Assembly: GCA_043228905.1 (NCBI GenBank) | Contig: JBHGNT010000071.1 | Span: forward strand, 57,589-121,588 | DNA: 64,000 bases | DNA from: Azolla caroliniana | Lineage: Eukaryota; Plantae; Polypodiophyta | Reading direction: 5' to 3' | Shown here: positions 8,136-57,382 of the stretch, in pieces | Layout: the number at the start of each line of letters is the position of its first letter | How positions within the stretch are numbered: position 1 is the first letter of the stretch | The notes under the pieces: model-generated | The model's input: only the letters and a program-made list of their open reading frames with translations | Told to the model about the DNA's origin: nothing | Databases searched by the model: none | Position numbers and translations under genes: made by a program

Positions 8136-9300
8136 GGTGTACAACCTTGGACATAAATGGTGGTGTACTTTATAGAGAAGAACGGAATTAAGCTTGGAAA
8201 CATGAACATTGAAGCTAATTGGTGGAATGTAATTAATTCTGACAGGGATGTCAAATGTGTAGGGTCTATGATAGTTAATCATTTGTTGACATCTTGGCAA
8301 AGTACGTTGGATTTTCCTAACCTTCAATTTAATCAGATGGTTAGATTGGGTTTGGTAACAATTAAGGATGCTATGTTGGAGTCACAAAGAAGATTAATGG
8401 CTTTTTGAACAATAAGATCAACCTTTCATATTCCAAAAGGTTATACCTTTATTTGGGATAAGTTGCAACAAATACTATCTTCGTATGAGTCAATTCCTGA
8501 CTTAGATGGGCGATCTCAAGAGCTTGATTGGAGGTTTGTTGGAAATAAGAGATTGACTATGATCTGAACAAATGTTGCTTATCACAAGTTGATTGATAAA
8601 CATAAGTGGTTGGAAGAACGGGTTATAAAGATATGGGGTTTTCGTAAGCCCATTACTTGGTGCCTTCATGTGATCAATGCAGGTTGGTCTTCTCGATTGA
8701 TGCTACAAGCCAAGGTATTTATTTGAAGAGTTATGGTTGGAGTTTTACCATTGGGGGATGCATTAAAAAAAAGAAACATTACTAGAGGATCGAATTTCTT
8801 TTGTTTTGTAGAATTGGAATATAGTAGGCATCGATTTATTTCATGCCCGATGGTAATGATGGTTTGGAGGCGTATCAATTTAGTGTGGATGTCTCTAACT
8901 GGAGTAAGCTTATCTTCCTTCAGTTGGGTTTTTGCACTTATGAAGAACAATGAACCAATGCCTCATTTTCAAATGATTTTTGAGTTCTTGAGGTATTGGG
9001 GGCTATGGTTCAATTGGAATATGCGGAATGCCTTCATTTTTTATTCGCAAGTTGGGCTGAGAAAATATGTTCTAAAGTTAAAATGAATTCTTTTGCGGCA
9101 AATGACAGTGCTAGAGAAGTCACGAAATCGCAACCATGAAGAGAGAGAACTCTTCAAGGTCACATATCATCATATTCGCCAAAGATCTTTAGCATAGGTT
9201 GATCCAGAATGGAAATGTCACTGAAGCGAGGGAAGAACCTGCGAATCCTCTACCTTCTTGGTGTTCTCGTAGTTGAGCAGGTTGCAATGTTTTACAATTT
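8136..9300 (+). mobile_element. L1-type LINE, 3' ORF2 segment with zf-RVT-like region (non-inverted 3' part of element A)
   Basis: QPWT*MVVYFIEK...WWNVINS...KVFI*RVMVGVLPLGDAL...FCFVELEYSRHRFISCP...WNMRNAFIF, the post-RT C-terminal region of plant L1 ORF2; degenerate. Confidence 0.8.
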
Positions 9301-9309
9301 TAACCAGTA

Positions 9310-12300
9310 CATTTCGAGAGCAGGCTGCAATATGCATGGTTTTTGCATGTCACGCATAAACAAAATATACATCAGTCCGGCACTAGAAAAATTTGGAACC
9401 AATGTTGAAATCATTGCAGGGTCAGCCTACTCTGATCATATGCCGATTAAGATAACGCTAGAAACGCAGAGGAGACCACCAAGGGACTGCAATGTGAGGA
9501 TCAACAAAAAACTTTTTGAGGATGTGGAGGTGAGTAGAAATATAAGGCGTATATGGGAAAGAAATTTGGTTGGATGTGGCGCACTTGATAAACTTCGAGG
9601 GAAGATTATCGAAACGTCAACTTATCTCCATAAGGCGACGAAAAGTAGGATTACGAGGTCTAAGGAGGAAGAAATGTGTTTAAGGAGATCAATAGCGGCT
9701 GCCCAAAGGCTACTACAGAAAGATCCCTGATGCCAATGGTCTAGGGCAAGCCTCAAGGCTGCCAGAGAAACCTTGCAATGCTTGATTGATTGCATCCAGA
9801 AATACGATGTTATTTAGGAGTTCGGCTGCATGCTGGAGCAAAAATGGGGATAAGGTGAATAAACAATTTTTCATGCATAAACAACCTAGAACAAACTATA
9901 GCTACAATCCGAAGCTGGTTAAGGAAGATGACTCTATCCCGAAGGATATTTCAGAGATCTTGGAGGCAGTCACCTCAAACTATCATGAGTTGCTTTCGGA
10001 TAGTTACAATAGCCCCGAACAACCTCCTATGATAGAATATGTGCTTGAGGGAATGCAACATAAAATTTCAAATGCGGCACAAGCTAATTTGGTGAGGCCT
10101 CTCTTGGAGGAGGAGGTGGCTGATGCTTTGGCAAGTATTTGTAGAACGTCCTGCCCAGGCTCCGATGGGTTATCAAGAGATTTTTTCGAAATTTTTTGGG
10201 ACATAATCAAGGTAGATTTGGTTGATGGGCTAAAGGAGGCATGGGATGTTGGGTACTTACCTGAGCAATTTCAAGAGGGGATGATATTTCTAATTCCTAA
10301 GGTACAAGTTGTAACAACTGATGCAAGGCAATGGAGACCAATCACGCTGCTAAACACAAGATAAAAGATATTTGCTAATATACTAGCCAAGAGGGTAAAA
10401 CCCTACTTGCAAGAACTAATCCATGTTGGACAAACAGGGTTCATGGAAAACAGATGCATAATTGATAATGTGTTGACATTTTGGGAGGCGATTGCCTTGG
10501 CAAAGAAAACCAATCAACACATTGCTTGTCTCATGCTTGACTTTGAGAAGGCATATGACAGAGTTCAGTGGCCTTTTTTAGATAAAGTCATGGAAAGGTT
10601 GGGTCTACCTTTAAAATGCCGATCAATTACGCTAGCCCTTTACAAAGGAAGTTCGAGTAGGGTGTTAGTGACAGGGCATCGTGGCCCATCGATTCCATTA
10701 CGTAGGTCTGTTAGACAGGGGTGCCCGTTGGCCCCTTATCTTTTTTTATTTATTACAGAAGCATTCTCTTTCTTTTTGAACAGATCGGATGCAGGAATAA
10801 GAGGTTTAGCTATCCCACATGTGAGTAAGGAGTTGCTGGACTCTGAGTATGCAGACGACACTATGCTTTACTTGCAAGGGAATGATGCTAATTTACAGAA
10901 GGCGGAAGGACGGATTGAGTGGTTTTGCAATGCATCAGGGGGGAAAATTAACTGGAACAAAAGTAGAGGATTCTGGGTAAGTTCAAACCCACGACCGCTA
11001 TGGTGTCCCAACGTTGATTTTCAATGGGTCCCCAATGGCATGGCTGTTAAGTATTTGGGTTTTTTGGTGGGAGTTGAGACACCAAAAAATCAGCAGCTTG
11101 AGCAGGTCAAAGACAAAATTAGAAAAAAGCTTCAGTTGTGGGCATCAGTAAAGCTCTCCCTTGTTGGTAGGGTTGTGGTGGTGAACCATATTTTGTTGGC
11201 CACCATGTGGCATTCAGTGGCATGTTGGATGTTAGACAAAGCCTGCATAAAAAATATTAAGGCAATGGTGAGAGGCTTCTTGTGGTCGGGTAGAGACAAT
11301 GAAAAGGCATCAGCTAAAGTGGCGTGGGGTTGTTTAGTTAAGACAAAGAATGAGGGAGGACTTGGACTGGTGGATCCGGTTCACCAAAGTAAGGCTCTAC
11401 TTGGTAAGCTTTTAGTGCGAAGTTTGCAACCCGGACCAAAATTGTGGAAGGTGCTCCTTAGGAATAGAGTTTACCTTTGGTGTCCCAGGAATGGTGGTCC
11501 TTGGCAGGCAAATACATGGTGGTTGTTCAGCCCAGCTCTAAAGTTGAAAGAACCGGCTAGCATGGAGGATAGAGTGGTTCGCGCCATAATGAAGGCATGG
11601 TCAAGTTTAAGAGAAGGGTTAGTCTTAATGCAACCAAAAACACTAGATGAACAACTACGACAACCGTTGTTTTGGAACCCTAGGATTAGAAGTGAAGATG
11701 GTAAGATGCTTGGACAACAAAAGTACTTGCCTTGGGGGAAGATGTTAGGGTACAAGATTCAGTCGGCACACGATTGGGAGGTTTTCAGCATGAAGAGGCG
11801 GACAAGTCATACTGTTAATTGTAGGATTATTGGAAGACTAGCGAAGGTAATCCAACTGATAGATGGGGTTGTTGATGGATTGGATAAGCTGCCTGCGGAA
11901 GAGACAGTTTGGTCGGGCTGGTTTGTAGGTGAGGGTGACGCACAACTTATCCGTGGTAGGTGCTCAACTAGCGAGGATCGTTTGTGGGGTAACCGAAGTT
12001 CTTTGACAGATGATGGTAGGTGGATGGCAGTGCGGGTGGCAGTGTTGGAGGGTAAGTGGTGGCAATTGAACCCAGACCCTAAGACCCTGGATCATGATTG
12101 TAAAATATGGCTTTACGATAATAAGCCCTTATATGATTTGGAGTGGGACCCATTGGAGGTTTGGTGGCAGACACCAGGAACAAAAAACTTTTTCAAGTTT
12201 TTTGAATACAATACCAAGCTAGGAAGACGAATCGTTGGCTCCAAAACCGTGGATGTTGGAATGATTCGCAACAGTTGGAAGGATAAAGGCATTTCAAATG

Positions 12301-13264
12301 ACGATTTGAAGTCGGTTTGGAGGAGACTATGGGCATTGGATATGCCAGAAAAAATTAAGGCTTGGTGGTGGCTTCTTAGCCACAAGGCGGTACCTGTAGG
12401 CGAGTGGTTGAGCTCCCGTGGTGTTGAGGCTAGTTGTAAGTTATGTGGACAGGCTTTGGAATCAATCTCTCACTGTTTTTGGAATTGTACAGAGGCGATT
12501 AGCATTTGGAGTAGAAGCCTTTGAATTGTGGCAGCCTGTGGTGTGAAAGGGAATGTTGTGTGGGGCTCAATACAAGGGTTGTCCTTAAAAGGGGAAAGCT
12601 GGAGTGAACAGTTAACCCACAAGGACATGGATTTATAGTGCAGGGCGGTAGCGTGTTCCAAGGTGATGGTGTGAGGCCAGGCACAAATTCTGAAATTTTT
12701 GAGGAGATTTGGCTTATGGTGGCCTGTTTGACAGCCTGGCACATCTGGATCAGATGTTGTAAGGTTGTTTTTCAGCAGCAAAAGATCTCATGCGGGGAGA
12801 TGATGTTAAATATCTAGTTTGATCTTGTGGCTTGGTTGCACGGTCGGTATGATTCGATTCAAGGGGATTCAGAAGAAGCAGAAAGGGCAAGGTCAAAGTT
12901 CTTGCTGAAATGGAAGAGCTCTCCCATGCTAGTCAAATCTTCATCCAGGCCTAAGTGGAATTACCAAGCACCTAGGTGGTTGTTTCCACCAATGGCTCCC
13001 AATATTGTACATGGGTTGTAATTATGTATGTATAGCTGACACAAACGTGTGTCAGGGAGTTGTAGAGTAGGGGTAAAATAGGGTTTAATTCAATTTTGCT
13101 TGAGTTAAGGATCGGTTGAGTTTTTTTTGTTGTTTTTGGTTGATAGTTTTGGAGTTGTTTCTCCAAGTTGTATATGTTGATCCCATTGTGGATTTGGATA
13201 AACTTTGTTGTATTCTATTTGCTAACTAATGCGAAGTAGTGGTTTTTTTTTTTGGAAAAAAAAA
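9310..13264 (+). mobile_element. 5'-truncated L1-type LINE (element B): end of endonuclease, RT, zf-RVT, 3' UTR and short A-tail
   Basis: SRINKIY..SDHMPI (APE end), CPGSDG, WRPITLLN, QTGF, LDFEKAYDRV, RQGCPLAPYLF, YADD, KYLG, GGLGL, CKLC..ESISHCFWNC. In-frame stops at 9728, 10362 and 12522, frameshifts near 9800 and 12610, GT-rich 3' UTR, A9 at 13256-13264. Confidence 0.95.
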
Positions 13265-16394: not shown

Positions 16395-18440
16395 CCTAGC
16401 TACCCTCATTTCGTCATCTTTTGACTACGTCAAGACTCTAACGTTGTGGTGGTCAACTCTTTTAGCGAGCGCGCCAGCACCAGGTACAACTCGACGCCGC
16501 GGTAGTGGTATGGGACGCCGATCGAGGCTCAAGTCCGTCTCGATCCCTTCGCTCGAGGGTGGTCAGGTGGATCGGCACCCTTCTTTCTCTCTCCTTTCTA
16601 TCTATCTATCCTTTTTTCTTATCATATGCTTACGTTAGATCATAACTCTAATAGCAGGTCTTTTGTTATGATGTTTACAAACGTAGATATAGATGGGGCA
16701 TATGCGCTACAAGACACAATGTATGAGTGAACTAACTTTGTCTGAAACATTTTCATTATGGTGAATATCAATACAGTTTGACATACATGATGTGTCATAC
16801 ATGCTTTGAGATATGATGTATACATGGTTTGAATCAACATTAGTCAAAGCTTTTGTATTATGGTTGATGGCAATAATATTGTCATAATGGTGGTTAAACC
16901 TTTTGGACATATTACTAATGCAATGTGTGTTTTCCCGGGTATTGAACATTTCCTTTTCTATTATATTTGCAAGCTTCGCATGATTAGGTGGAGAGTGTGA
17001 AGATTTTGAGAGTTTGGGGCAAGATTTAGGTGTTATGGGAATGCAAAACAAAAATATAAAATATGGAATTCTGGGGGGGGGGGTGGAGATCATTGTATCG
17101 AAGGGTCAATTAAGATATGAGAGCCAAACGACGCAAGTGTGTATTTTGCTCACAAGCAAATTTCACACTATTTTTATGCATAAGCACATTTGAGGTCCTT
17201 TAAGAGTTACCACTATCAAATTCCACCGAGTATAAGGGGATTTTGTATACAAGTTCTATCTTAATAATGCTCTTACCAAAATAAAATAAAATTTGACATT
17301 TTCCAACATCTAGGGATTGTTTTGTTTAAGATGATGGCACTTTTGACTTTGGCTATGTGCATAATCACCCACATTAGAGGGGAATGGAACCGATATTCCA
17401 AGCATTAGGGAGACATTGATGTCTTTCCATGTAATCGTGCACCAAATGTTGGTTCAATGCAAGACATACTAGGTTAGAATTATGTGCCTCGTCTCAATTT
17501 GTCAAGTTTTTAGAATCCTCAATCAGTAGCAAGCTAACCATCCAACTTGTATGTTGTTTTGTAGTACCCCCAACATGATGATAACACCATTTTCGCAAAA
17601 TCATCACTTCTCTACATGAAAACCAACTTCAAATTCGGTTGATCCAATGCATGCTTACATCAGTTAGCCTACAAATTGACCCATCCTTTTTCAAGCTACT
17701 GTATCCAATTAGTGTAAGCATCGAGCTTTTGAGGCTGGATTATTAATGTATTGAGTGAGGTTCCTTGAGAATTTAGTGAACTTACATTGGAGAAGGAAGC
17801 AACAATACAATATTTAGTGAAATCTTATTTTTCACTCAAGCAAATAATCGCACATCCTAATGGGATTGCCCTTTGGGCAAACCTAAAAGGCCTCACGTGA
17901 TAATTATTACGAAATTTGTATTTCCTCGGAAAAGAATTGCAAATCGCTAGGAAAAGTGAAAGGTTGCAAGATTGAAGAATTTTAAAATAAAATAATGGTT
18001 GCATATTTTAGGGAAGGACAGGGGATGTTGTAAGACTCAGGAGGTGAATTCTTGATGATTTGGGAATTCTGAAGCTCTGTGTTCCGTTCAAGACATATAT
18101 GTCACTATTCTGAAAAAGGGGTTGATGATTACTTGAAATCCCACCTATTTTGTAGGTTGTAGCTGATATACCTTTTTTTTAAACTAATGGAAGGATATTT
18201 TGTTTAAAAATAATAATAATTCTTGATGATTTGTACACTTTTTGCATGGCAAGGATTATTTGTTACAAACAAGAGTCATTCACTTAGTTAATCATAGATC
18301 ATTTAGGTACAAATTTTTTAAACAAGGGCATGTGCATAGGGTCATTAAATACACGTGGAAATAACTTTGCGCTCAACTGAAATTGAAAATGAGGTGTCCA
18401 CACACATAAAGATCTAGAAGTGTAATGTTTGTATATATAT

Positions 18441-18446
<6 letters not shown>

Positions 18447-18501
<55 letters not shown>
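18447..18501. repeat. (AC)n microsatellite
   Basis: About 27 AC units. Confidence 0.95.
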
Positions 18502-18504
<3 letters not shown>

Positions 18505-21299
18505 CATATATGGGTATGTAATGCTACAAATAGATTCGGAAATAGAAGCAAATACCATGCAAGAATCTCATGGATACATGAAAAGTTTAAATGTTTAATA
18601 TATATAGCTTCAGCAATTGAAGGTGTGCGTTAAAATGTGTAATTAAGCAATTAATATAACTGTAGTGAATATACCAAAGTTGAAGAAACTACTATTTATA
18701 TTGGCAACTACGATACAATAGTTTTGATACATTTAAACAATAAAAGGGTTCTCACTTAATGGCTAAAGGACATCCGAATGGAAGAGGTAATACAAGGAGA
18801 TGTTGAGAAGGTTGGTTTGGGTAGAACTATAAGAAATATATGTGAGGCCTACGCTATGGGCCGATACCAGGTACAATTGGGTGAAACTTTCACTTCAATA
18901 GCATGTGAGGCTCCAATATTGTGGATTATCTTTTAAAGGAACAACGAATGGTTTCATAAGTAATATAATGTTTTAAAGTAAACAAGAGTCAAGAAGTCAT
19001 TGTATGATCATGTTGCCTTAAATATAAATGCTCAAATCTTGTATAGCCCCCCATTCTTGTCCATGTTGAAAATAACCATTTGAGAATCCAACCACGAAAG
19101 TAAAGTGAATATGTTGTCAATGTATAGGTATCATTAGTAGATGTGAATTTGCCGATAGACACTCGTGCTCATAAGCAACTCTTTGCAAATATTCCACTCG
19201 ATTTATAACAAAATGTCATTCGTACTATATTGAAAATAGCATAAAGTTCTGATAAGCACTTTTTTAGTCTCGAATTAATCTCTCCCCCCCCCCTTTTCTC
19301 AGCCATAAATTTAGCTTAACCTTCTAATGTTTGAGTGAAAGTATTGAGCCTTTATATCCAGCACTTAAGCTCTATTATTAGTAGGTGTGGTTAATTAAAA
19401 TCAAGAGTAAATACTCACTAGAATTTTGTATAATTTCTTGTTGCTTTCCTTTACTTTAAGTTGCCTTAAAGTTAATAATGTCTTTATTGTATTTGTTAGT
19501 TTATAAGAGAAGGACATGATTAGAGGATTTACTTAGGTTAGCTCTTTGGGTGCTTGCTAGGTACACATTGAGAGTGGTTGACACCCACTTCACATACACT
19601 TGGGTGCATATCCATCCAATCCTATGCACCAATTTGATGCAAAAGGTGACTATTAGTTCATTGCATTGACCCAATCCAACATGTGATAGGGTGGAAATGG
19701 TAGCACATCTCCCTTGCATTTAGTCTAATCGTGTAGGCGTGATACATCCAACTAATGCTTTAAAGTTCCCACCACAAATATGGTTTAGTCAATGAAGGTT
19801 TTAACTTCTAGTATATAACATTTTAGGATTATTTCTCAAATATTTACATCAATTAGAAACCTTGTAGCTAAATTTAAGATTGTACCACAAGTACTATCAT
19901 ATATTTGCTCTTCACATGTTTGTTCATACCATCAAGTTTTCCCACAAAATAATGTTTAGATGAACATCCTTATTCATAGATGTAGCAATACCTATTTGGG
20001 GAGAGGACGACTATCCCTACCATAATTGAGATATTTTGTATACTTTTGTTTGGAGGATGGCCTTAGATGTTCATATCTAACACATGCTTCATTGATCCAA
20101 TCACTAATTCATGGGAGGAGATGTCGGGGTATATACTTACTCAAAATGAAAAAGTCGAATTGTGTAAGCATGAAAGATGAGTACATGACAAATTGCTTAA
20201 TGAGCAAACTTCTTGTTAATTAGCATATAAACTCGTATGAAAACCAAGCACTTGGGAGGCAATCTACATGTAGACTATGAAAATGTTCACTGATTGAGTT
20301 CAAAAAGTTGTCTCCCACATTAAAATATATGGTTTAGTGGACTATCACGGCTTTTTAGACGCAATCGAGTCTAGTATGCTTCATGAATCATAGGCAGCTA
20401 GAGGGAAAGTTACAGTAAAGCCTATATTTCGAGGTCGATTCTACTTTTAAAAAAGAAAGTCTTATTTATTTTCCCCACAAGAAATAACTGACACTTCCTT
20501 GTGGAAATACGACCAGGGTTTTCTTTTTGTGTGTGACATAGTGCAGCATCGAAGGTTGTCACCCAAGGAGTTGAGGTTTTATTTTCGAGAAGAGAGTGGG
20601 AGGGGGGGAGTATGCATCATCCATTGGGGGTGCCAGGGAGGGACCATGTGATAGTGTCTCATCTTGTCGAAATCGTTACAGAAGAAGAAACCTTACAAGA
20701 CACTTGTAGGAGTACTAGTAGGAGGAGGAGGAGGAGGAGGATGTGATTGGAATCACAAGAACTCTTGGTTTTGTTCTTACCCGAGAAGAAGAATCTAATC
20801 ATTTAAAAAACTAAAGAAAATATAATAATTACATAATAAAAGGGAAAATAATAATAATAATAATAATAAATCCTCTATAAGATTAGTGAATTCAACAAAA
20901 TGTACCCTTGCGTTCTATTATGTAAGTTAAGAAGAGAAAAACGAATTAATAAAAAGGTGGGGAATACAAAATAATAATTCCTAGAACATACCCTCGTATT
21001 TCCAGGAAAATGCCCTTAGGTTTTCTGTATTTCCCGAAATGCCCTGCCCCCCTTCCAGACCTCCCTCCCCTCCCGCCCCCCAAGAAAACAGAAAACCAAA
21101 AAAACTGTCTCTAGGGTGTTCAAATTGTATGAGGGGAAAATTTTAAGGCATCATACTGGGTGATGGAAAATTAGGTCACAAAATTGATTGGGTTGAGCCA
21201 TGGGTGCAGGGTTGATCCATTCAAATATCTGGGTTGAATTAAGTAGGTGACATTGTGGACGGCCCATAATGTGAATTAATGTTAGAATGTGATGATAGA

Positions 21300-21518
21300 G
21301 AATGATTAGGGCGAAATTTTCGACGAGTGTGAATGATCAGGGTTAGGGTTTTGATGGACAGAAATTAGGGTTAATTAATTTGATGCGCGTGGAAGGGGGG
21401 GGGGGGGTGATAATGAGAATTAGGGTTAATTTGACGACCGCGAGCGATGAAGATGCTGATGGAGATGATGAGGATAGCTATGGCGTCAGTACAGAGAAAT
21501 GCACGCACACAGAGACAC

Positions 21519-21553
<35 letters not shown>

Positions 21554-21985
21554 GGAAAACACACGCTTTCTTTCTTCTTCGTCTTCTCGCTTTTCGCTTT
21601 TGTCTTTTTCTCTTCTTTCGCCCTTCCTCTTCTCTCCCAATATCTTATCTATCCTGTCTATCACTCATTTGCATCTCCCCTGTTCTAACTTCTTCTTCTT
21701 TATTCATTCATTCATTCTATCCCTAACCCTAATCCAGCCCTAATTCCAATCCCTAGCCCTAGTTTAAAATCCTTAACCATTATTCAAAATCCCTAACCAT
21801 TGTTCCAAATCCCTAACCATTGTTTAAAATCCTTAATCCTACTCCGAACCCTAACCCAAGTCCTACTTCAAATCCCCTAGACCTAGGTCAAACTTCAACT
21901 CTAACTCTATTGCAAATCCCTTAACCCTAACCCTAGTTTCCTCATCCCTATCCTTACCTTAACCCAAACCCTAATTAAAATCCCT
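21300..21985. promoter_or_regulatory. Telobox/telomere-like repeat clusters flanking GA and CT tracts upstream of the HD-Zip gene
   Basis: TTAGGG-like motifs at 21306-21430, (GA)n at 21519-21551, CCCTAA-like motifs at 21721-21975, exact teloboxes at 21344-21351 (TAGGGTTT) and 21966-21973 (AAACCCTA), and a 20-bp unit x4 at 21762-21840. Confidence 0.6.
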
Positions 21986-22198
21986 GTATCAATCATCATC
22001 TTCTTCTTCTTCTTCTTTCTTAATAGCACTCCCCTGTTTCCCCTCGCTATTTTCCCACTGTTTCTTATTTGTTGTTGCTTCTTTCCTCAGGTTTCTCGTC
22101 ATATACTCTTTTCTTCTGTTTTTCCGGCTTTGCCTTTAAGTTTAACCTGAGGATTTCTTTCTGTCTTTCAACGGAGTGAAACGGAAAACATCAGAGTA

Positions 22199-22300
22199 AT
22201 GGCTCTCTGTCTTGAGATTCCTATCGGGTTCAAGATGGCCAAGCAAGTCATACACTCTCTCCCGCATGGCAACCATCACCATGGTTTCTTCATATTTTGA
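22199..22300 (+). CDS. 33-aa upstream ORF in the HD-Zip I leader, candidate conserved-peptide uORF (AtHB1 CPuORF33-like)
   Basis: ATG...TGA encodes MALCLEIPIGFKMAKQVIHSLPHGNHHHGFFIF. It lies after a CAG acceptor (22090) and ends about 400 nt before the main ATG. Confidence 0.65.
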   Translation: MALCLEIPIGFKMAKQVIHSLPHGNHHHGFFIF

Positions 22301-22697
22301 TCATTCTTTGCTTCTTCTTCTTCTTCTTCTTCTTCCTCCTCCTCCTTTCTTTCTTTTGTTATCAGAACTAGTTGTAGATGAATATATATCTGTATATATT
22401 TAATCCACTCCACATGTCGTTCTTCTCATAGCTCGTATGAATATTATCTACATACCTCGTTTTGGCTGTTCTCATAGATTGTATTCATGCATCTGTCTGT
22501 CTATCTATGTTTGATCTAATCCAGTTTGCCTTTTAGTTACCGTAGATTGGATGCATCTATATGTCTATCTGGCTTTAGATTTGATCTGATCCCTGGGCCT
22601 AGCTTGTTCTCGCAACTTGTATGCATACATATCTATCTATATTCTGATCTGTATATTTGATCTAAAATCCACTTGTCCTAAGTCCATACTCCATTCC

Positions 22698-24717
22698 ATG
22701 GCTTGGATCAATGGCGTTATCATGGGACCTTATCATTTGGACAGCATGATCCAAGCTCGAGAAGAAGATACTGCCACAAGTCTTCAATTACCTCATCATC
22801 ATCATCATCATCAATCGCTGCAAGGGTTTGTCTCGTCGTGTAATTCGACCTCCCTTCCGAAAGGTAATTAATATAACTGTCGCCCATGATTATGAATCAA
22901 AATATACCATCCTGGTTTCCTTTGAATTCTTTTAAGATCGAACCTTAGGATTTAACATAAATGGAACAGTTTATGAATTTAGAGACCGGCAGTTTCAGAA
23001 ACGTTAAGATCTTTAGGATTTGCTCCGCATCCTCGTAGTGGAATTCAAGGGATCAAGGATGGGTTAATCATAGAATTCAAAGATTGATGATGGGTTGGTT
23101 TAAACTTTATACTCCTGTGCCTTGTTCACCCCCCAATCAGGAAACTAACTAAACATGCAAAGGATGCAAGTACTAACCATGCCCTAATCACATCCATTAA
23201 CCGTGATTCACTTACTAATCACACCACTTGTGCAAATCCATTGATGCATATGTTCTCTATTATATGTTGTTAATAACTCGGGACCACATGATGACTTTGT
23301 AGCTCGACCAAGTAGAGGTCTCAATAAGAGAACCCTTAGTCGATACTCCATAAAAGATGACAATGCATTCAATGACGACGAATTGCTATACAACCTCGGT
23401 GATCATGATTTTATCGATGACATGACAACTAACGATAATCCATCCGAGAAGAGACGCCGCCTCACAATGGAGCAAGTCAACTTCTTAGAGATGAGCTTCA
23501 ACAATGATCTCAAGCTCGAACCTGACCGGAAAACTGAAATTGCAAAGCAATTAGGGATTCGGCCTAGACAAGTTGCGATCTGGTTCCAAAATAGGCGAGC
23601 CCGATGGAAGAATAAGCAACTCGAACAAGACTATGATGCCTTGAAGGCCAATTATGAAGCTCTAGTTAAGGACAACGACAATAGAGCTAAGGAACATGGC
23701 GCCATTGTGGAGGAAAACATGAGGTTACTTGCTGAGGTCAAGCTAGCTAATCTTTAATTCTTCGTTTTGTTCCATTACCTTTCCATTTTTCCTTATAATC
23801 TTGCTTTTAAGCTCACAAGTGATTTTAGGCCATTTGTTTTCCATGTAATGAGATTAAATGTCCCACTTCACCTTTCTTAGAGGTTTTAGCATTACCATAA
23901 GTTTTGTAAGCAAGGTATCACACATGTGAAAACAATAGTCATCTTGGAAGATTTTGGAATCTTGGATAAATATAATCATATCATTCTAGAGTGTCCTCGA
24001 AACTTTGGGACAACCAAAACTTAAGATCTCGTGATAATTTCATTGTAAACATTAAAGAACATTCTAAAAGCTTTTGGAGGACTCCTTGATATTTTAAGGA
24101 TGTGTTTCTTGACATGAGGTTCTCTTTATACTTAGTTGTGTGTGTGTGTGTGTGTGTATAGAGGGGACATTTCAATGTTATGAATATTTGTAGTCCTTGG
24201 AATTACATAAGCTCACACACACGTTAGGTGGGAAAATGTCTAAAACTTATTGTAATATAACATTTGATACCATGTTTTGTCATTATCTTGCTTTCTGACA
24301 TATGTCATGTGTTTATAGGTATCGCGATTAAAGAGCTTGCTAGAGAAGCAACAAATTAACATATTTTCTGATGATGCATTAATGGTTAAAAAGGAGGAGG
24401 AAACAAGTGGGAAGTCAGAGCTGACATATTACTCCCCCACAAAGTACTCTGGTGAGGATCAAAGCGATGATTCAGGGCAAAGCAATGAATCTCAACCTTC
24501 TTTGGATGAAGAAGAAGAGTTAAATCCATCGGTAAAGATAGAAGAGGAGGAAGGAGAAGGTGATGATTTGCATTTAATACAAAGTGATGATATTCTATTG
24601 TTTCATCAAATTGCAACCACCCATGGCAATGGCATGACATGCATTAATGACGATTCATACTTGATATTCAACTCATGTGAAGACCAACTGGGTGGGTTCC
24701 CATCATGGTATGGTTAA
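22698..24717 (+). CDS. Homeodomain-leucine zipper class I transcription factor, about 332 aa, 3 exons
   Basis: Exons 22698-22863, 23303-23736 and 24319-24717 join in phase at GT-AG sites. [18 protein letters not shown]...[22 protein letters not shown] plus zipper; acidic C-terminus ending FPSWYG (AHA-like). Confidence 0.93.
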
Positions 24718-24729
24718 TGATGTGGCTTC

Positions 24730-24762
<33 letters not shown>

Positions 24763-27700
24763 GGTAAGTGTGGCAAGTATATATATCCATATGTCCTAAT
24801 TATATATTGTTCAACTTGTATGTTGGAATGCATATGCATATTAGAGTAATAAATCCTTTTTCCCAATGTTTTATGAATCATTGAATTAGTAAGACAAGTT
24901 TTCATCACACTTGAGCAGTCTTGCTAAGTGGGCTATATCATTGGTCCACATGTACATATAATGTATATGTTTGTAATACGTTGGAAAGAAGTGGATTCAA
25001 AAATCATTCAAGAATGACAAAACTCTTTTTCTAGGTTGTTTCAAATTGGCATATCACATGTGGAGAGAAATGTTTCAAGAGGTAATATAGCACATCTACA
25101 TTCTTTCCCACTCTCTTACAATTACACACAAAATCTACTAACTTCTATAGTCAAGGTGGTATTTTGTTCTCCATGGCCTTGAGCCATCATCATTGAGATG
25201 CAAGATGTACGTATATAAGCTCATTACTCTCCTCCACGGTAAGAGACGTTGTTCCCTTGATATACCTTTCATGCCTTTTTTCTCTATAACAAAGATATCC
25301 AAGGACACCTATAAGTGCATTAGCCCTCAGAATGAATTTACAAGTTGCCAGCTTGACCTAGCCTAAACTTTAAAAAAAAATGGTCCAAGATGCTTAGCTC
25401 AATGAAGAGTAGTTTAGGACGATTAGATTTTTAAATGAATAGTCCAAGATACTCATAACCAGGAAGAGAGGTGTTAATGTGTTCTTGAAAGATATTGCAC
25501 AAAGACAAGTCAATCAACATTAGGGATCATGTTTTTCTCATCTAAACTTAGTAGTGCAAATTCTTGATTCTAGCACACATGCTTCTAATTTACTTGGATA
25601 AAGCCACTCACGTATTTGTTTCCTCTAATTCCATCACTTGAAGACTCGATTTTTGATGAAACAATGTTGGGGCCCCATCAAGGAGATGCCATCCAAATTG
25701 GGATAAATTTTAATTATTGTCAAAACTCAGGGGGATCAATGAGACACTATTTCAAACTTGAAACAATAAGTTGGAGATGTTTGTCCTAAGCGGATAAAAA
25801 TGGGAGAATTTTTGAAACTTGATTGATACTTTGCATGATAAATTCTCCAATTTAACAATGGAATTCTTAGGTAAATCATAAAGCTACTTTGTCATATCCT
25901 TATAATGAAGAACTAAACACTTCTATTAGTTTTTATCATATTAGGTATTGCTAGCGAGACAATAATGTTGAATATATGACCGTTTATCTTCATAAAATTA
26001 TAAATTAAACAAAATATTCGAAGCTAATGCACAATGTGAGAGCATATAAGACATCCTCATCAATTTGATGTAAGAGTTCTAAAGTTTTACTACATACATG
26101 TAATGGTGTATTAGTACAACACCGATTTTGGAAACATAAGGTCCTAAATTCTATGTTGTGTCTATTACATGTGCCTAATAGATTATTTATATTCATGCAA
26201 GTTGCTCAGACAACTACAAATCATAGTTCACAATCTCATTTGAGATAGGGTGAAGAAGGCAGAGATTTATTATTGTCCTTAGAGGTAAATTATGCCCTAT
26301 TTTATTTTATTTTATTCCATAAAAAATATCCTCCATTGGTATTAAAATTAAAGGAACAATATACATGTGTATATTGTCTTGCATCTGTTCAAAACTAATA
26401 CAACACCACCTCGGCATATCCATAGTCTCTATAGCCTCTTTTGAGTGCATTCCCTGAGACGATATTTGAAACCATAATTATGCCCGATTTTATTTGAGTG
26501 CCTGTGGATTTGGTAACCAACCTTACTAATGAACTATGCAATAGAGAGTGCCCCCTAAGCAACATCGTTGGACAAGATTGGGGTTTACAATCCGGAGGAA
26601 ACAACCTCACTTGTGATTGAAGGTGGATCATTGTAGTAGAGTGTGATACAATGAGGGGTGGAATGAATGTAAATATTCATCTTTGCACCACCCAATTTGT
26701 TGTTTATTTTGGCTTTTAGTCACATATATTAGCTAGCTAGTTAAAAATATGTTTTGGCCTCTTCCCAATTTTCAGATGAGGCCACATAATGAAGATAAAT
26801 CGAAATGTGAAATTATTGCCTCATACATTATATAATAGACATACCACAAGATAAAGCAAAATGTAAATTTGTTGTCTTTATGCATGATAAATAAGCATAC
26901 CACTTAATGCAGATACAATAAACATTAGATGGACCCACACATTATTAGTTTACGTTCACTCTATTGTATTACATGTTGAAGTGCAACTACCAAGCATATG
27001 CTATTGAAGTGTTGATTGAGGCCCACAATCCAATTGCCACCCTCCACTCAATGTGACTTAGTAGATGACATCCAAACTTGATTGCATCCCTATTTCTTGA
27101 TTCCCTTCCTAGGTCTGAGTGGAGTTGTGCAAGGGGTGTCAACATTGCGGATTCTCATTTGCCAACACCACAAGGGTGAAGCTCCCAAAGGGATGCGTCT
27201 AAAACTAATTACAATTTCCTCTCCAAGCACAATAGGTGCGATAGGCCTCAAAATACTAGACTTGTATTATGATCAAAACATTCAATAGACAATTCACCCT
27301 TGTTACACTAGCACTATGCCCATAATGAATTCAACTCTTATGATTGGGTTATGAAGGTTGCATAATATTTTGGCATTTGACATGCCTATCGGATCTCTTG
27401 TTTGTTCCTATTTTCATCTTCCTTGCATGCATTTGTAAAGATGATCCTTGGGTTCCATGACCAATTTGATAGTGAGACTTATGTGCCTAGCATACCAAGT
27501 TGTGTGTTCTATAAATGAAATATGTGGATCACAGGATCATACACTATCAACCTTTGTCATTTCTCCATAAGATTGCATCTATTTATATGCCTTTTGATAA
27601 CTTGTTTATGATAGTTTGAAAGGTGTTCTAGAATTTATGTCATCTAGTATCATGTCCTCCTACATGTAGCATACCATTATATAAAGTTGGGTTGCTTTCC

Positions 27701-34128: not shown

Positions 34129-35836
34129 TCAACAATAGCTGGGTGTGAAGGTGAGACGAGAGGTGCTAGTGCTGAAGGAGAGAAGGAAACCTTGCTGTTG
34201 AATGTTTCCAAGTATAGATAAACCCCATGATGGAGCAAATGCAAGGCAATAAGTTGCGGCATCATCATCGATACCGATAAGGTAATTCGCAGTGGGAAGG
34301 CTAATTGTAAGGCTAATTGTAGCTGTAGATGGGGCTGAATTCTTGCTGCCTATCCTGCCAGGGGCATTGTCTGTCCCCATTTCCACCAAATGGAGGTCAA
34401 TAGTCGGCACACTGACCAACACCATCCCCGAGAGGTCGTAGCAAGTGTCAAATATCTCCATTCCTCCATCCACAAGCCTCAAATCTGTTGCTGCCTCCTG
34501 AAACGCCTCTCTCAATGTCGTAGGCGACCTATTCGAGCCGAGTCACTGTCGTCCCTGAATCCACCACAACACCGCCTTCACTGTTCTCCGACAACCCCCG
34601 TATCGCCGATGATATGGGCAGCCGTCTTCCTCCCACACTGATCCCTTCCAACTCAATGTAGTAGAAGGTGTCCATCCTCTGGTTCCGTAATAGCGGTGTA
34701 CTCACAGACTGTCGGTCATCTGTAGGCGTGTTTTCGCTGGATCCTGGATCGCCCGAGTTATTCAATCCGAATGCCAGAGTTCCTCCTCCATATCCCATCG
34801 CCGGAAGACAGTATGCAAAATTGCGATGGGAAGGACATGCTGCCAGCCCCAAGCCCGAGCAAGCCAGCAGAGACACTGAACCGCCCCTCATTATCATGCC
34901 CGCATCCGATCCCTATCCCTGACACCACTGCCCCACTGGAGAAGGTGGGCATCTCGGTCACTAGGTTCCCAACCTTGAATGACCCGTCGCCATATTGGAC
35001 CTCGTACGTGAAGCTCTGGATGCAGGTGTGGAGCGGGAGGTGGGCACAGAGTGGCGAGGTGCACAAGATTGGGCGGAAGGACGAGGAGGCAGAAGGCCGG
35101 AAAATGGGGTCAGGTTGGGGGTAGCATTGATTACAAAGAGCACATTGCAACCATGTGAGGTCACTAGCAGTGTCCAGGATCATGTAGGTGGGCAAGGGAT
35201 TTTCACGAGGTACTCACCGCTGCCGCGGTTTGCACCAGACGAGACCAGACTATTGATCGGTGGTGGTGGTGGTGGTGGTGGTGATGATGAGGGGCGGTGC
35301 CGGTGCCGGTGCCATTGGCAGTGTTGATCAAGCGATCCATGAAATGTAGTGGTCAGACCTGGCAGCATGGCTGCAGATGATAAGGTTGGTTCTATTGGGG
35401 CAACAAGGGGTAATGATCCGGCACGAGGGCTTCCTGAACCCATCCTTAACAATGACAAATTTTCACGGGCCCACCTCACGGCACCAAATATAGCTTCCAC
35501 TTTCCCCTTATCTCGCTTCAAACGATCCATCCTTATACTTGCTATATGAGTCTTCATGTGATTGCTCAAGGATTGCACTGATGATGGCACTATCACCACG
35601 CTATCCAAGACCTCAGTATGCCATGTCCACGTTGCATTAATTCTTTTAAGTGAGAGATTATAGGCAGTGTGGGATCCTCTTCTAGCATCTCCAAAGATCT
35701 CTAACTTTACAAACTGTTGGTACGTATAGGGAGGTTTATTGGTTTGACTAAGCTTATGAGCTATGGTAGCACAATGAGCAGTAAGTCTTAGAAGGGACAA
35801 GAGCAAAGAAACCATTGCCAACTTGAACTTTTCCAT
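34129..35836 (-). pseudogene. Intronless A1 (nepenthesin/ASPG1-like) aspartic protease with three frameshifts
   Basis: Signal peptide from the ATG at 35836; SGANRGSGEYLV | LDTASDLTWLQC..YGDGS..GCGHDNEG | FAYCL..FYYIELEGISVGG..VVVDSGTTVTRL | FDTCYDLSG..YCLAF..SILGNIQQQ. The four segments are offset by frameshifts near 35200, 34875 and 34520; first catalytic motif reads DTA instead of DTG. Confidence 0.88.
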
Positions 35837-51101: not shown

Positions 51102-53086
51102 ATGGACAAGGAGAGCTTTCATCACAATTATCGTGCATTCATTGCCTTATTCAAGGTTTGTGCAAAGAAAAAAGACCTTCAACAAGGCATTAAATTACAT
51201 GCCGAAATTTCGAAACAAGTTATACTCGAAAATAACCCATACCTAGTTAGTGCTTTGATCAATATGTATGCAAAATGTGGTGCCTTTCAAAAGCAAAACA
51301 AGTACTCGAAGACTTACCAACTCGAAATTCTGTCTCTTGGAATGCCCTTATTTCTGGATATGCACAACAAGGGCATGGTCAAAAAGCATTGGATTGTTTT
51401 GGAAAGATGCAACTAGAGGGCATTTCACCCGATGCATTCACTTTTACCTCTATCTTGAAAGTTTGTGGTAGCATAGTTGCTGTTGAAGAAGGACAAATAA
51501 TCCACAACGAGATTGTGGGTAGAGGCTTGTTAAAAAAGGATGTTGTGCTTGGCACTGCCCTGGTAGATATGTATGCCAAATGTGGTTTGCACAGAAAAGC
51601 ACAACTAGTACTCGACGAACTTCCTGAGAGAAACGTATTCTCTTGGTCTTCACTAATTATAGGGTATGTCGAACAAGGTCAAGGTCACAAAGCATTGAAT
51701 TGTTTTGAGCAGATGCAAAGTGAGGGACTCACTCCAGATTCAGTAACATTTATTTGTGTCTTGAAGGCATGTGGGCAAATAGGAGCTTCAGAGAAGGGTG
51801 GAGAAATCCATGAAGAGGTTTTGGATAGAGGCATATTGGAGAAGGATATTGTGCTTGGTAATGCTTTGGTGGATATGTATGTGAAATGCGGTTTACTTGC
51901 GAAAGCACAGAGGAACACATTAATTGTGGCATATGCTCACTTAGGGGAAGATCAGGAAGCATTGACCTGCTTTGATCAAATGCAAAGGGAGGGGCTATCT
52001 CCAGACACGGTCACCTTTCCTTCCATCTTAAAGGCTTGTGGTATCGTAGGTGCCATTGATAAGGGCAAACAAATACATTTAGATATTATGCATAAGGGAT
52101 TTCTGAATAAAGATGCTGCACTTGGAAATGCTTTGGTGGATATGTATGCCAAATGTAATATGTTTGGAGAGGCATGGAAGCTGCTGGAAGAGCTTCCTTG
52201 CCAAAATATCGTTGCTTGGAATGCCTTGATCTCAGTATATGTTGAACAAGGGCAAGGTCATGAAGCACTCAAATGCTATCAAAAAATAGAGAGAGAGGGG
52301 ATCTCTCCAGATATAGTCATGTTTACGTGCCTCCTGAAGGCATGTGGCAGCACAGGAGCCATAGACAAAGGCAAAGAAATTCATGGAGAGATTGTGAGTA
52401 GGGGTTTTCTAGAAAAAGACATTGTTCTTGGAACTACTTTGGTGGATATGTATGCCAAATGCGGCATGCTTGAAAAAGCACAAGAAGTGTTAGAGGATCT
52501 TAGTATATGAGATGTGGTCTGTTGGTCAGTATTGATAGCAGGATATGCTCGAAAGGGGAAAGGCTTAGAATCGTTGACATGTTTTAAAAGGATGCAAAGC
52601 GAAGGTCTTTCTCCGGACGAAGTCACACTCTTATGTGTTTTGAGTGCATGTTGTCATGCAGGTCTGTTGGATGAGATTCAAATGCTACACAGGGATATGG
52701 TAAAGAAATATGGTGTTACTCCAAATGTAGAACATCATGCTTGCATGCTTATGGTTTATGGATATGCAGGAGATTTTGACAAGGCAGTGTCAGTGATTAA
52801 AGTGATGCCATCTTGTTATCAGTCTCCACTTTGGCTTGTACTGTTGGGTGCTTGTAGAAAATGGGAAAATGTAAAGCTTGGGAGGTTAGCTTTTATTAAG
52901 ATTATAGAGTTAGATAATCACTGTGCTGCAGCTTATTTCCTCATGGCTAGTATTTATACAGCTGCTGGAATGCATACAGCTGCAGAAAATGTTAAATCCA
53001 TGAGATCAACAGCTGTTTCTCAGGATAAACAAAGGAATATTGTGCGGCTTGATGCAAATGGAAATATTCTTCTGTTGTCTATTTGA
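51102..53086 (+). pseudogene. PLS-E class PPR gene disrupted by a 1-nt frameshift (about 51283), an internal deletion (about 51912) and an in-frame TGA (52508-52510)
   Basis: Repeated WNALISGY / ISPDAFTFTSILK.CG / VLGTALVDMYAKCG triplets; ORFs 51275-52510 and 52514-53086 share a frame; ends with EHHAC..W..LLGAC..AAYFLMASIY (E motifs). Confidence 0.9.
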
Positions 53087-55286: not shown

Positions 55287-55699
55287 GACACCCAACAACT
55301 TTCATTGGCATTGTGGGGAAAACAAATAAAAGTAATATGTTCACACGACTCATTGGCCATCAAGAGAAGAACATTGTTGGGGGGAGGGGAGGAGCAAAGT
55401 GCTTGTGGTGGCTGTCCCAACATGTGACCAAAATATCTGAAGAAATCAATAAGAAATGGACTTCTAAGTCTAGAGGCAGTGAAAGGTAGTCATGACTCTT
55501 GACTCATGAGTGAGGGAGTGTGTATTGAGAGTCTAGATTAAATTGGGCACATTCTTTTTAACAGCCCTCCACAAAATGTTTGACACTGTAGCCTAGATTT
55601 TCAAACTATGTATATGATTGCGTTTACACTTTTAAAACCTACGTCCCTATCCCTATCTCTTGGACAGATTCCAGAGCAGCCTCTGCAGATGACAGTAAT

Positions 55700-57382
55700 A
55701 TGGTAGCTCTTCCAGCTACTCGCTTCAAACGAGAATTCTCCTTAAATCTGAAAGAACATTTATTAACCCACGCCAGGAATAGAGCCTCACAACAGGTGCT
55801 AGATTATTATCAACGCTTGATCTCTTCTTCAAGTATAAAGCCTGATGAATATGTTTTAGTTGCTGCCATCAAAGCATGTGCATGTAAAGGAAACCTAATT
55901 CTAGGTAGGTACATTCATGTCGATATCATAGATGCAGGGCTTGAATCTCATGTGTATGTAGGAAGTGCACTTGTTAGTATGTACGTGAAATGTGGTAGCC
56001 TTGATGATGGTGAAAAAGTCTTTGATGGGTTATCAAGATATGATGTTGTTTGTTGGAATGCATTGCTTTCAGGCTACGCCTATCATGGACATATGGAAAA
56101 GATGGTTCAATGCTTTGACAAAATGAACAAGTCTGATCAATTTCAGCCCAATTTGGCTACTCTGAATGCATTGATTGCTGGATATTGTCGAGATAAGCTC
56201 AGCCACAAGGCTTTGCAAGTGTTTACGCAAATGCAACAAGAAGGTAATTGGATGCCTGATGGCGTTACCTATGCAAGCCTTCTCAATGCATGTAATTGGA
56301 TGGAAAAAGCTCATGATCAAGGCAAGATGATTCATGTTTTTATCATAGAGTGTGGGTTTGAATCTGATGCCTTTATCGCGAATTCCCTTGTGAATTTGTA
56401 TGTAAAATGTGAGGATTTCAAGCATGCAATTCATGTTTCCAAAAGAGTAGAAAAAATGGACTGTGTGACATGGAACGTTTTAATTGGAGGCTATGCAATG
56501 CATGGTCATATTCAGGAAGCCATTGAGGTTTTTAACAACATGCGTAAAGCGGGTATTTGTCCTGATCTTGTCACGTGGAACTCTTTGCTAACAGGATGTG
56601 TACAACATGGCTATGGTCAGCAAGCTTTTATACTCTTCCAACAAATGCAGGAACAGGGTTCAAATTCCGATAAGGTCACATTTGTGAATTCCTTAAAAAT
56701 ATGCTCCTTAGTAAGTTCTCTGGATCAGGGAAAAGTGATTCATGCTTGCCTTCTAGACACTGAAATGTGCTGTAATCTATTTGTTTGCAATGCGTTGATT
56801 GACATGTACGCTAAATGTGGGAGTTTAGATGATGCCTCTAGACATTTCCATGCCTTATCAAAGAGGGATCTAGTGTCTTGGAATACAATTATTGCATCAT
56901 ATGCCAGTTACAGACATCATATGATGGTATTTGAATGCTTCAGGGATATGCAAATAGATGGGTTTCAACCAGATGAGATAACTTTCCTCTGTGTTCTATC
57001 TGCATGTACCCATATGGGATTTTCGGAAATGGGTTGTATGTATTTTATGACCATGAGAGAATGTCTTGCCACATCTTGCAAGGTAGAGCACTATAACTGC
57101 ATTGTGGACTTATTGGCTAGGAAAGGTTGTTTGAAAGAGGCCAAGTCCCTGCTTGGAATGATGCCATTTGAAGCAAATCTTCGAGCATGGACTTCTTTAT
57201 TGAGTCATTGTAATACTTATGGTGAACTAAAATTAGGAAGGCATTGTTTTAATCAACTACTTTTGATCGATAACAAATATGCCTCAAGTTATGAACTTAT
57301 GTCAGCCTTGTATGCGCAGATGGGAATGTGGGAGGATGTGGTCCGAGTTCAAGAATTGAGAAGACGTGTCAATGCCTCATAA
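55700..57382 (+). CDS. Intact intronless PLS-class PPR protein with C-terminal E motifs, 560 aa, putative organellar RNA-editing specificity factor
   Basis: Uninterrupted ORF of P/L/S motifs (VGSALVSMYVKCGSLDDG, WNALLSGY, PDEITFLCVLSAC, EHYNCIVDLLAR..W.SLLSHC..SSYELMSALYAQMGMW); no DYW domain. Confidence 0.92.
   Translation: MVALPATRFKREFSLNLKEHLLTHARNRASQQVLDYYQRLISSSSIKPDEYVLVAAIKACACKGNLILGRYIHVDIIDAGLESHVYVGSALVSMYVKCGSLDDGEKVFDGLSRYDVVCWNALLSGYAYHGHMEKMVQCFDKMNKSDQFQPNLATLNALIAGYCRDKLSHKALQVFTQMQQEGNWMPDGVTYASLLNACNWMEKAHDQGKMIHVFIIECGFESDAFIANSLVNLYVKCEDFKHAIHVSKRVEKMDCVTWNVLIGGYAMHGHIQEAIEVFNNMRKAGICPDLVTWNSLLTGCVQHGYGQQAFILFQQMQEQGSNSDKVTFVNSLKICSLVSSLDQGKVIHACLLDTEMCCNLFVCNALIDMYAKCGSLDDASRHFHALSKRDLVSWNTIIASYASYRHHMMVFECFRDMQIDGFQPDEITFLCVLSACTHMGFSEMGCMYFMTMRECLATSCKVEHYNCIVDLLARKGCLKEAKSLLGMMPFEANLRAWTSLLSHCNTYGELKLGRHCFNQLLLIDNKYASSYELMSALYAQMGMWEDVVRVQELRRRVNAS

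Follow-up and report, generated by a model that had tools for sequence, protein, structure and literature searches.

A conserved-peptide uORF (CPuORF) is present at positions 22199-22300 (+) of the 64-kb stretch of Azolla caroliniana DNA analysed here (the window), and it belongs to a family that is confined in this genome to one clade of class I HD-Zip genes. The uORF comprises 33 codons, translates to MALCLEIPIGFKMAKQVIHSLPHGNHHHGFFIF and ends with a TGA stop codon. The reading that we favour, and hold to be fairly probable, is that this CPuORF family is distinct from CPuORF33/HG14, occurs on all five genes of the fern HD-Zip I clade in this genome, and carries an N-terminal block of 14-17 residues that likely slows or arrests the elongating ribosome and would thus repress the main ORF. 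The original prediction of a conserved-peptide uORF in the HD-Zip I leader of a non-seed plant is upheld by the finding of five paralogues and of a transcribed leader.

By size alone the 33-aa ORF is unremarkable, since the window holds 323 ATG-started ORFs of 25-45 aa, seven of them ending in IF. The underlying observation of a 33-codon ORF followed by an HD-Zip I gene is nevertheless confirmed. The gene downstream has three exons on the forward strand, starts at the ATG at 22698 and has an ORF of 999 nt (332 aa). Exon 1 (22698-22863) opens with MAW, like fern homologues, exon 2 (23303-23736) encodes the homeodomain and leucine zipper recognised by Pfam (Homeodomain, E 1.1e-17; HALZ, E 1.9e-8), and exon 3 (24319-24717) encodes an acidic tail and the stop. 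These Pfam assignments, together with homologue matches, place the host in the same family as that of CPuORF33, HD-Zip class I, as had been proposed.

Both introns were seen as GT..AG joints in contigs from public sequencing runs, intron 1 in two runs and intron 2 in three; the type of these runs is a guess, none being recorded as RNA, and it is the spliced joints that show RNA. The joint-bearing contigs came from runs X1, X16 and X2, and four runs were examined for joints in the leader. RNA cover is nil before 21564, which as the first bin with cover gives the approximate start of a transcribed 5' leader of about 1.1 kb (21564-22697, +), and the ATG of the uORF is the first one past this point. 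In X1 the depth per bin is 167-685 over the leader versus 11-13 over the introns, while contigs of X2 tile 21688-22090, 22061-22299 and 22356-22861, the last being joined to exon 2. A CTT repeat at 22300-22355 is bridged by no single contig, so that the uORF and the main ORF lie on separate contigs, and we infer that they share one mRNA molecule. The ORF is neither intronic nor upstream of the transcript start, the leader being covered from 21564 and showing no splice joint in the four runs, as far as can be told from short contigs, in which rare isoforms are lost. That it is instead intronic, or a short initial coding exon joined by splicing to the HD-Zip frame, is scarcely credible and largely refuted: beyond the lack of joints, the leader has a depth like that of the exons and far above that of the introns, the motif occurs in none of the best 120 of 375 HD-Zip homologues, and the main ORF begins independently with a conserved M[AS]W, as do 14 of the 32 top homologues. 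Longer proteins with the motif were also not found, which is weak evidence, and in favour of a spliced exon stands the knowledge of the leader from contigs too short to retain a rare isoform.

A telomere-like run of CCCTAA/AACCCTA repeats lies inside the transcribed leader at 21720-21975, and is kept in the orthologue L034 described below.

A search of the 523-Mb genome with the peptide returned six places (six of six candidates), and an exact degenerate pattern recovered the same six, with none in the control. One of these copies (L029, G000:C1:36414000-36423999) is 98.2% identical to window positions 17201-27200 over 10 kb. On this sequence identity it is probably an allele, leaving five independent genes, and C71, the contig with the window, is probably an unplaced allele of a segment of C1. 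All six copies are on the plus strand before an HD-Zip I homeodomain exon, 357-571 nt before the M[AS]W start. The genome gave 12 homeodomain matches (40 candidates scored), of which the six with the uORF are the top six. No similar uORF was found before the other six homeodomain genes when 4.5-5.3 kb upstream of the homeodomain motif was scanned (best scores 20-26, versus 80-98 for the family); judging by signature, we take five of these genes to be HD-Zip I-like and one to be class II-like.

In the five paralogues residues 1-14 and Q16 are identical, the start being MALC in every case. This defines a conserved core of codons 1-17 (22199-22249, +), which is often followed by [IM]-H. Ungapped identity among the five is 0.82 in the core versus 0.24 and 0.31 in the flanks, and the variable columns of the core at codon positions 1, 2 and 3 number 2/0/15 (binomial p 4.5e-6). 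For core codons 2-17, pS is 0.755, pN 0.033 and pN/pS 0.044, while the homeodomains of the same genes have pS 0.750, pN 0.144 and pN/pS 0.19, all values being uncorrected and the pairs not independent. Mean amino-acid identity is likewise 0.95 in the core versus 0.81 in the homeodomain, and the other reading frames over the core are stop-broken or variable. The core is therefore under purifying selection at the peptide level, tighter than that on the homeodomain, and since pS is equal in the two, the uORF was duplicated with its gene and has not spread recently.

Downstream of the core the paralogues differ. Their uORFs are 33, 29, 66, 19 and 58 aa long, with stops at codons 20-67 and final residues IF, RL, FQ, MD and LL, and none is fused in frame to the main ORF; the general CPuORF arrangement, a short ORF that starts at an ATG within the 5' leader and precedes the main ORF without being fused to it, is thus present, and the conserved C-terminus and stop position of class I CPuORFs are absent from the five. 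Stop-anchored stalling, originally proposed for this peptide, accordingly finds no support as a family trait, as both C-terminus and stop position vary. The tail at 22250-22300 (+) is rich in His, and similarly rich tails are seen in three of the five paralogues; its sequence is not shared among them, His positions differ and one paralogue is without His. The suggestion that the His cluster senses a ligand is hence unsupported as a family trait, and a role of the His-rich tail specific to this locus, though conceivable given the tail's conservation in an orthologue, is unsupported as well.

Conservation was followed into other organisms. A metagenome scan yielded six contigs, all of which come from close relatives and are orthologous to three of the paralogues. 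The orthologue of the present locus, L034, encodes an identical 33-aa peptide with one synonymous change in 102 nt, versus 52 changes in 612 nt of leader (p 0.002); with the paralogue pN/pS this bears out the peptide-level conservation in orthologues that had been set beforehand as a test. Within the tail 0 of 51 nt are changed, versus the same 52/612 (Fisher p 0.013), and peptide and nucleotide constraint are inseparable from these 0/51 changes alone. Among four runs the uORF was matched in three, from organisms D, H and I, F having yielded no contig. Organism D has ten substitutions and four indels in the 90 nt upstream versus at most two substitutions in 22199-22303. The fraction of the region's 31-mers present in organisms H and I is 0.00, yet two contigs from each match just 22199-22248/22251, with 4-8 differences per 50-53 nt (most of them unclassed as to whether they are synonymous) and unrelated flanks. 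As these two match the core alone, the core extends past close relatives. The peptide is thus conserved across species, beyond the paralogues, in organisms D, H and I and in the metagenome orthologues, as is general for CPuORFs.

The longest variant of the uORF (L020:2628-2825; L031, L032, L033, L035) has a tail of His-Ala repeats that varies in length and in three of four orthologues stays in frame with an identical CFQ-stop.

At the locus in the window, an ORF of 45 aa in another frame (22266-22403, +) overlaps the uORF tail and has a strong-context ATG at 22281, and an out-of-frame ATG of strong context is similarly placed in paralogue L003. The overlapping frame could add nucleotide constraint to the tail. 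The conservation of the tail among close orthologues is unexplained by a model in which only the core acts.

This retention of paralogue-specific tails among orthologues is one point in favour of a released micropeptide acting in trans, whose N-terminal 17 residues would bind a partner while repression in cis was just passive. A second is that conservation is anchored at Met1 and not at the stop, and exceeds that of the homeodomain. We nevertheless consider a trans-acting product improbable: in the 523-Mb genome the peptide is never found away from an HD-Zip I leader, its length ranges from 19 to 66 aa with low-complexity tails, and no family or look-alike emerged from protein, Pfam and ESM Atlas searches. 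In these searches, phmmer with the peptide against 1.84 billion representatives gave just two matches, both repeat-driven and unrelated, searching with an alignment of the paralogues retained 0 of 1921 and 0 of 7985 candidates at E<=10, Pfam gave 0 matches with the peptide, and ESM Atlas no usable one; such blanks are weak, as ORFs this short are rarely called in databases.

Selection on the core might also concern the RNA. A weak hairpin within the core (22209-22236, +; codons 4-13; -9.0 kcal/mol) is predicted over nt 11-38 of the uORF in all five paralogues, in four of them stronger than in most synonymous recodings (P 0.02-0.09), and it is placed as PMC10499604 describes for initiation-boosting hairpins of the uAUG-ds type, 'within 25 nt downstream' of the uAUG; the peptide would then be a by-product. 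The hairpin segment was, however, picked after the fold had been seen, and the five paralogues are not independent. Compensatory change occurs in 0 of 14 pairs, and the fifth paralogue folds no better than an average recoding (P 0.6). Predicted energies (30-nt part, -3.8 to -10; 71 nt, -14.6 to -21.3) mostly fall short of the stability reported in PMC10499604, which is -19.9 to -34.1 for 100 nt. Changes are confined to third positions, and pS in the core equals that in the homeodomain. A hairpin as the conserved element is thus very unlikely, and on these fold predictions it would be a helper at most. A search against Rfam gave six matches, all well under the gathering score and on CT/AG repeats.

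The resemblance to CPuORF33 of Arabidopsis, on which the original prediction was built, was assessed against homology group HG14 of the ESUCA catalogue. The Arabidopsis peptide cited there agrees with the entry in ESUCA Table S1 (PMC7106846). In the 11 rows listed there, from five angiosperms, TSFFRHK is present throughout, MG starts ten, lengths are 26-38 aa and tails of 1-13 residues follow; Ka/Ks for HG14 is about 0.05-0.08 (PMC7106846). The same table contains two unlike N-terminal subtypes that have TSFFRHK alone in common, which implies that HD-Zip I uORFs remodel around a short core. HG14 is a class II CPuORF (PMC9305500), fixed at its N-terminus and free in the length of its C-terminal part (PMC2075485, Table 6), and reviews describe repression by CPuORF33 as light- and chloroplast-dependent and due to stalling (PMC7503886, PMC11263492, PMC11062462, PMC10030323). 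One of these (PMC7503886) credits Hayashi 2017 with the arrest by CPuORF33, but the main text of that paper (PMC5587730) does not contain AT3G01470 or CPuORF33.

The fern family and CPuORF33/HG14 (AtHB1/HAT5, rice HOX16, HOX5) are alike in several respects, both being uORFs of about 30 codons in HD-Zip I leaders, common to paralogues, with a fixed N-terminus, variable C-terminal length and strong purifying selection. They differ in that the conserved block lies at about residues 19-25 in HG14 and at 1-17 in the fern family, which lacks TSFFRHK (0/5 paralogues) and the MG start, has a shortest member of 19 aa and has a conserved internal Met13. The likenesses first taken as signs of homology fare poorly: the C and LE of the shared N-terminal C..LE.P are missing from the three rice HG14 rows, the final IF is found in one of the 11 listed HG14 rows and in one of five fern paralogues, and similarity of length dissolves when 19-66 aa is set against 26-38 aa. 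The core was compared by eye with the listed angiosperm rows, and to align it with the Arabidopsis row one must open two gaps over 17 residues and rely on positions that vary inside HG14. The strings IGFK, GFKMA, MALCLE and CLEIP are absent from all eight ESUCA supplements of PMC7106846 (cells to 400 characters). A genome search for the TSFFRHK pattern found it in a chance frame alone, in two copies (L042/L043) with no homeodomain within 1.5 kb; as there is also no in-frame ATG, these were rejected as HG14 copies. In the absence of TSFFRHK, membership of HG14 fails, and on sequence the fern uORF family is most likely distinct from CPuORF33/HG14. Of the two options offered at the outset, a divergent homologue or a new class, it is the new class that fits better and the CPuORF33-like label that does not.

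The host phylogeny bears on whether the fern core could still be a deeply diverged HG14 homologue going back to the ancestor that ferns share with seed plants. Among the best 120 of 375 matches, the best named relatives of the host are Adiantum and Ceratopteris proteins, behind one angiosperm protein (57% identity over 61% of the query), and named angiosperm matches of the host exon are mostly HAT5/HOX16-like. Two trees were drawn from the top matches and the genome's own genes, one of 44 hand-picked rows and one of 100 rows; in the latter the host falls in a clade with Adiantum and Ceratopteris proteins (support 100/99). A long stem (0.41-0.47) subtends the fern clade, and the AU test on 102 columns rejected none of a fern+HAT5 clade (p 0.58), a fern+alpha clade (p 0.44) and an angiosperm-only clade (p 0.33). 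The HAT5-like matches and the unrejected fern+HAT5 clade, the long stem, the same host family and position, the fixed N-terminus and free C-terminal length of both peptides, and the tolerance of two very different N-termini among the listed HG14 rows all speak for common descent. Against it stand TSFFRHK in 11 of 11 listed HG14 rows versus 0 of 5 fern paralogues with no HD-Zip-linked copy in the genome, an alignment that depends on gaps and on residues HG14 has not kept, the two other host topologies that are equally unrejected, the unlikelihood of complete turnover of a block with pN/pS of 0.04 in both lineages, and ESUCA counts for HG14 of 5 in Gymnospermae, 0 in Polypodiopsida and 0 in other Embryophyta (PMC7106846). 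Deep homology with HG14 is on balance unlikely.

In the smaller tree the Azolla paralogues are split: two cluster with genes of Adiantum and Ceratopteris, away from the remaining three (97/81, 94/90). As the paralogues are interleaved with genes of these ferns, the uORF is predicted in them too. Tentatively, the uORF may be an arrest peptide of independent fern origin on HD-Zip I mRNAs, a 17-residue module anchored at Met1, older than the split of the sampled main fern lineages and tighter than the homeodomain, with tails that tune or condition it. If so, dosage control of HD-Zip I by a stalling uORF arose twice.

Returning to the favoured reading of a distinct, elongation-slowing family, the analysis points to repression in cis by peptide-dependent slowing near codons 17-19. 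Scanning ribosomes would start at the first AUG, and Met13, the second in-frame ATG (22235-22237, +), which has A at -3 and G at +4 in all five paralogues, would catch leaky ribosomes. The nascent block, short enough for the exit tunnel, would act in cis once codon 17-19 is reached, leaving the stop position free, and queued ribosomes would lower initiation at the main AUG. With a block anchored at Met1 and ending at codon 17-19, a free stop and a shortest member of 19 aa, the peptide cannot be a stop-anchored arrest peptide. By analogy with CPuORF33, a conditional signal such as light or the chloroplast may be involved. The main ATG lies 397 nt past the uORF stop, and with eight more ATGs in between, repression could be partly passive. 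The contexts of these downstream ATGs are weak in eight of eight cases at this locus; over the five paralogues the count is 14 of 22 (expected fraction 0.41-0.67), no enrichment, and selection for weak context was rejected.

Precedents for such a mechanism come from Arabidopsis. Two CPuORFs arrest elongation right after a conserved region of 16 or 28 codons and tolerate a moved stop (PMC5587730). AT4G36990 (HsfB1/TBF1) and AT5G53590 (SAUR30), in which a short block in the tunnel suffices and the stop position is uncritical (PMC5587730), serve as a model for the fern core, likened to it by mechanism; their arrest is shown and the fern one inferred, the host genes differ, and the fern block starts at Met1. 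Class IIa CPuORFs, like the fern family, have a conserved N-terminal or middle part and a poorly kept C-terminus, this being a pattern class with groups defined in Arabidopsis and no sequence family (Causier et al. 2022; PMC9305500), and they seldom show a stop-codon PARE peak (12.5%; PMC9305500). As a counterpoint, 19 of the 22 CPuORFs in that in vitro screen showed little or no arrest that depended on sequence (PMC5587730).

Loss of uORF control over HD-Zip I dosage is harmful in Arabidopsis. The plant CPuORF catalogues consulted use angiosperm queries, so that families specific to non-seed lineages would be invisible to them, and no fern HD-Zip uORF was among the literature matches listed, a coverage outside which subscription papers fall. 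With the fern family one can test whether vascular plants inherited uORF control of HD-Zip I dosage from an ancestor or acquired it convergently, and also whether class IIa uORFs with a conserved N-terminus stall during elongation. The 19-aa paralogue uORF is a very short natural candidate arrest peptide, and the tails of the family supply five natural variants.

At window positions 22362-22633, runs X1, X16 and X3 contain two haplotypes of similar depth with 17 differences over 289 nt (about 6%), which suggests hybrid, polyploid or mixed material. Elsewhere in the window, judging by eye, long frames at 9203-12521 (+) are presumably a broken LINE-type reverse transcriptase, the long frame at 34132-35213 (-) is one that we take to be an aspartic protease, and those at 51251-53083 and 55592-57379 (+) are presumably PPR genes.
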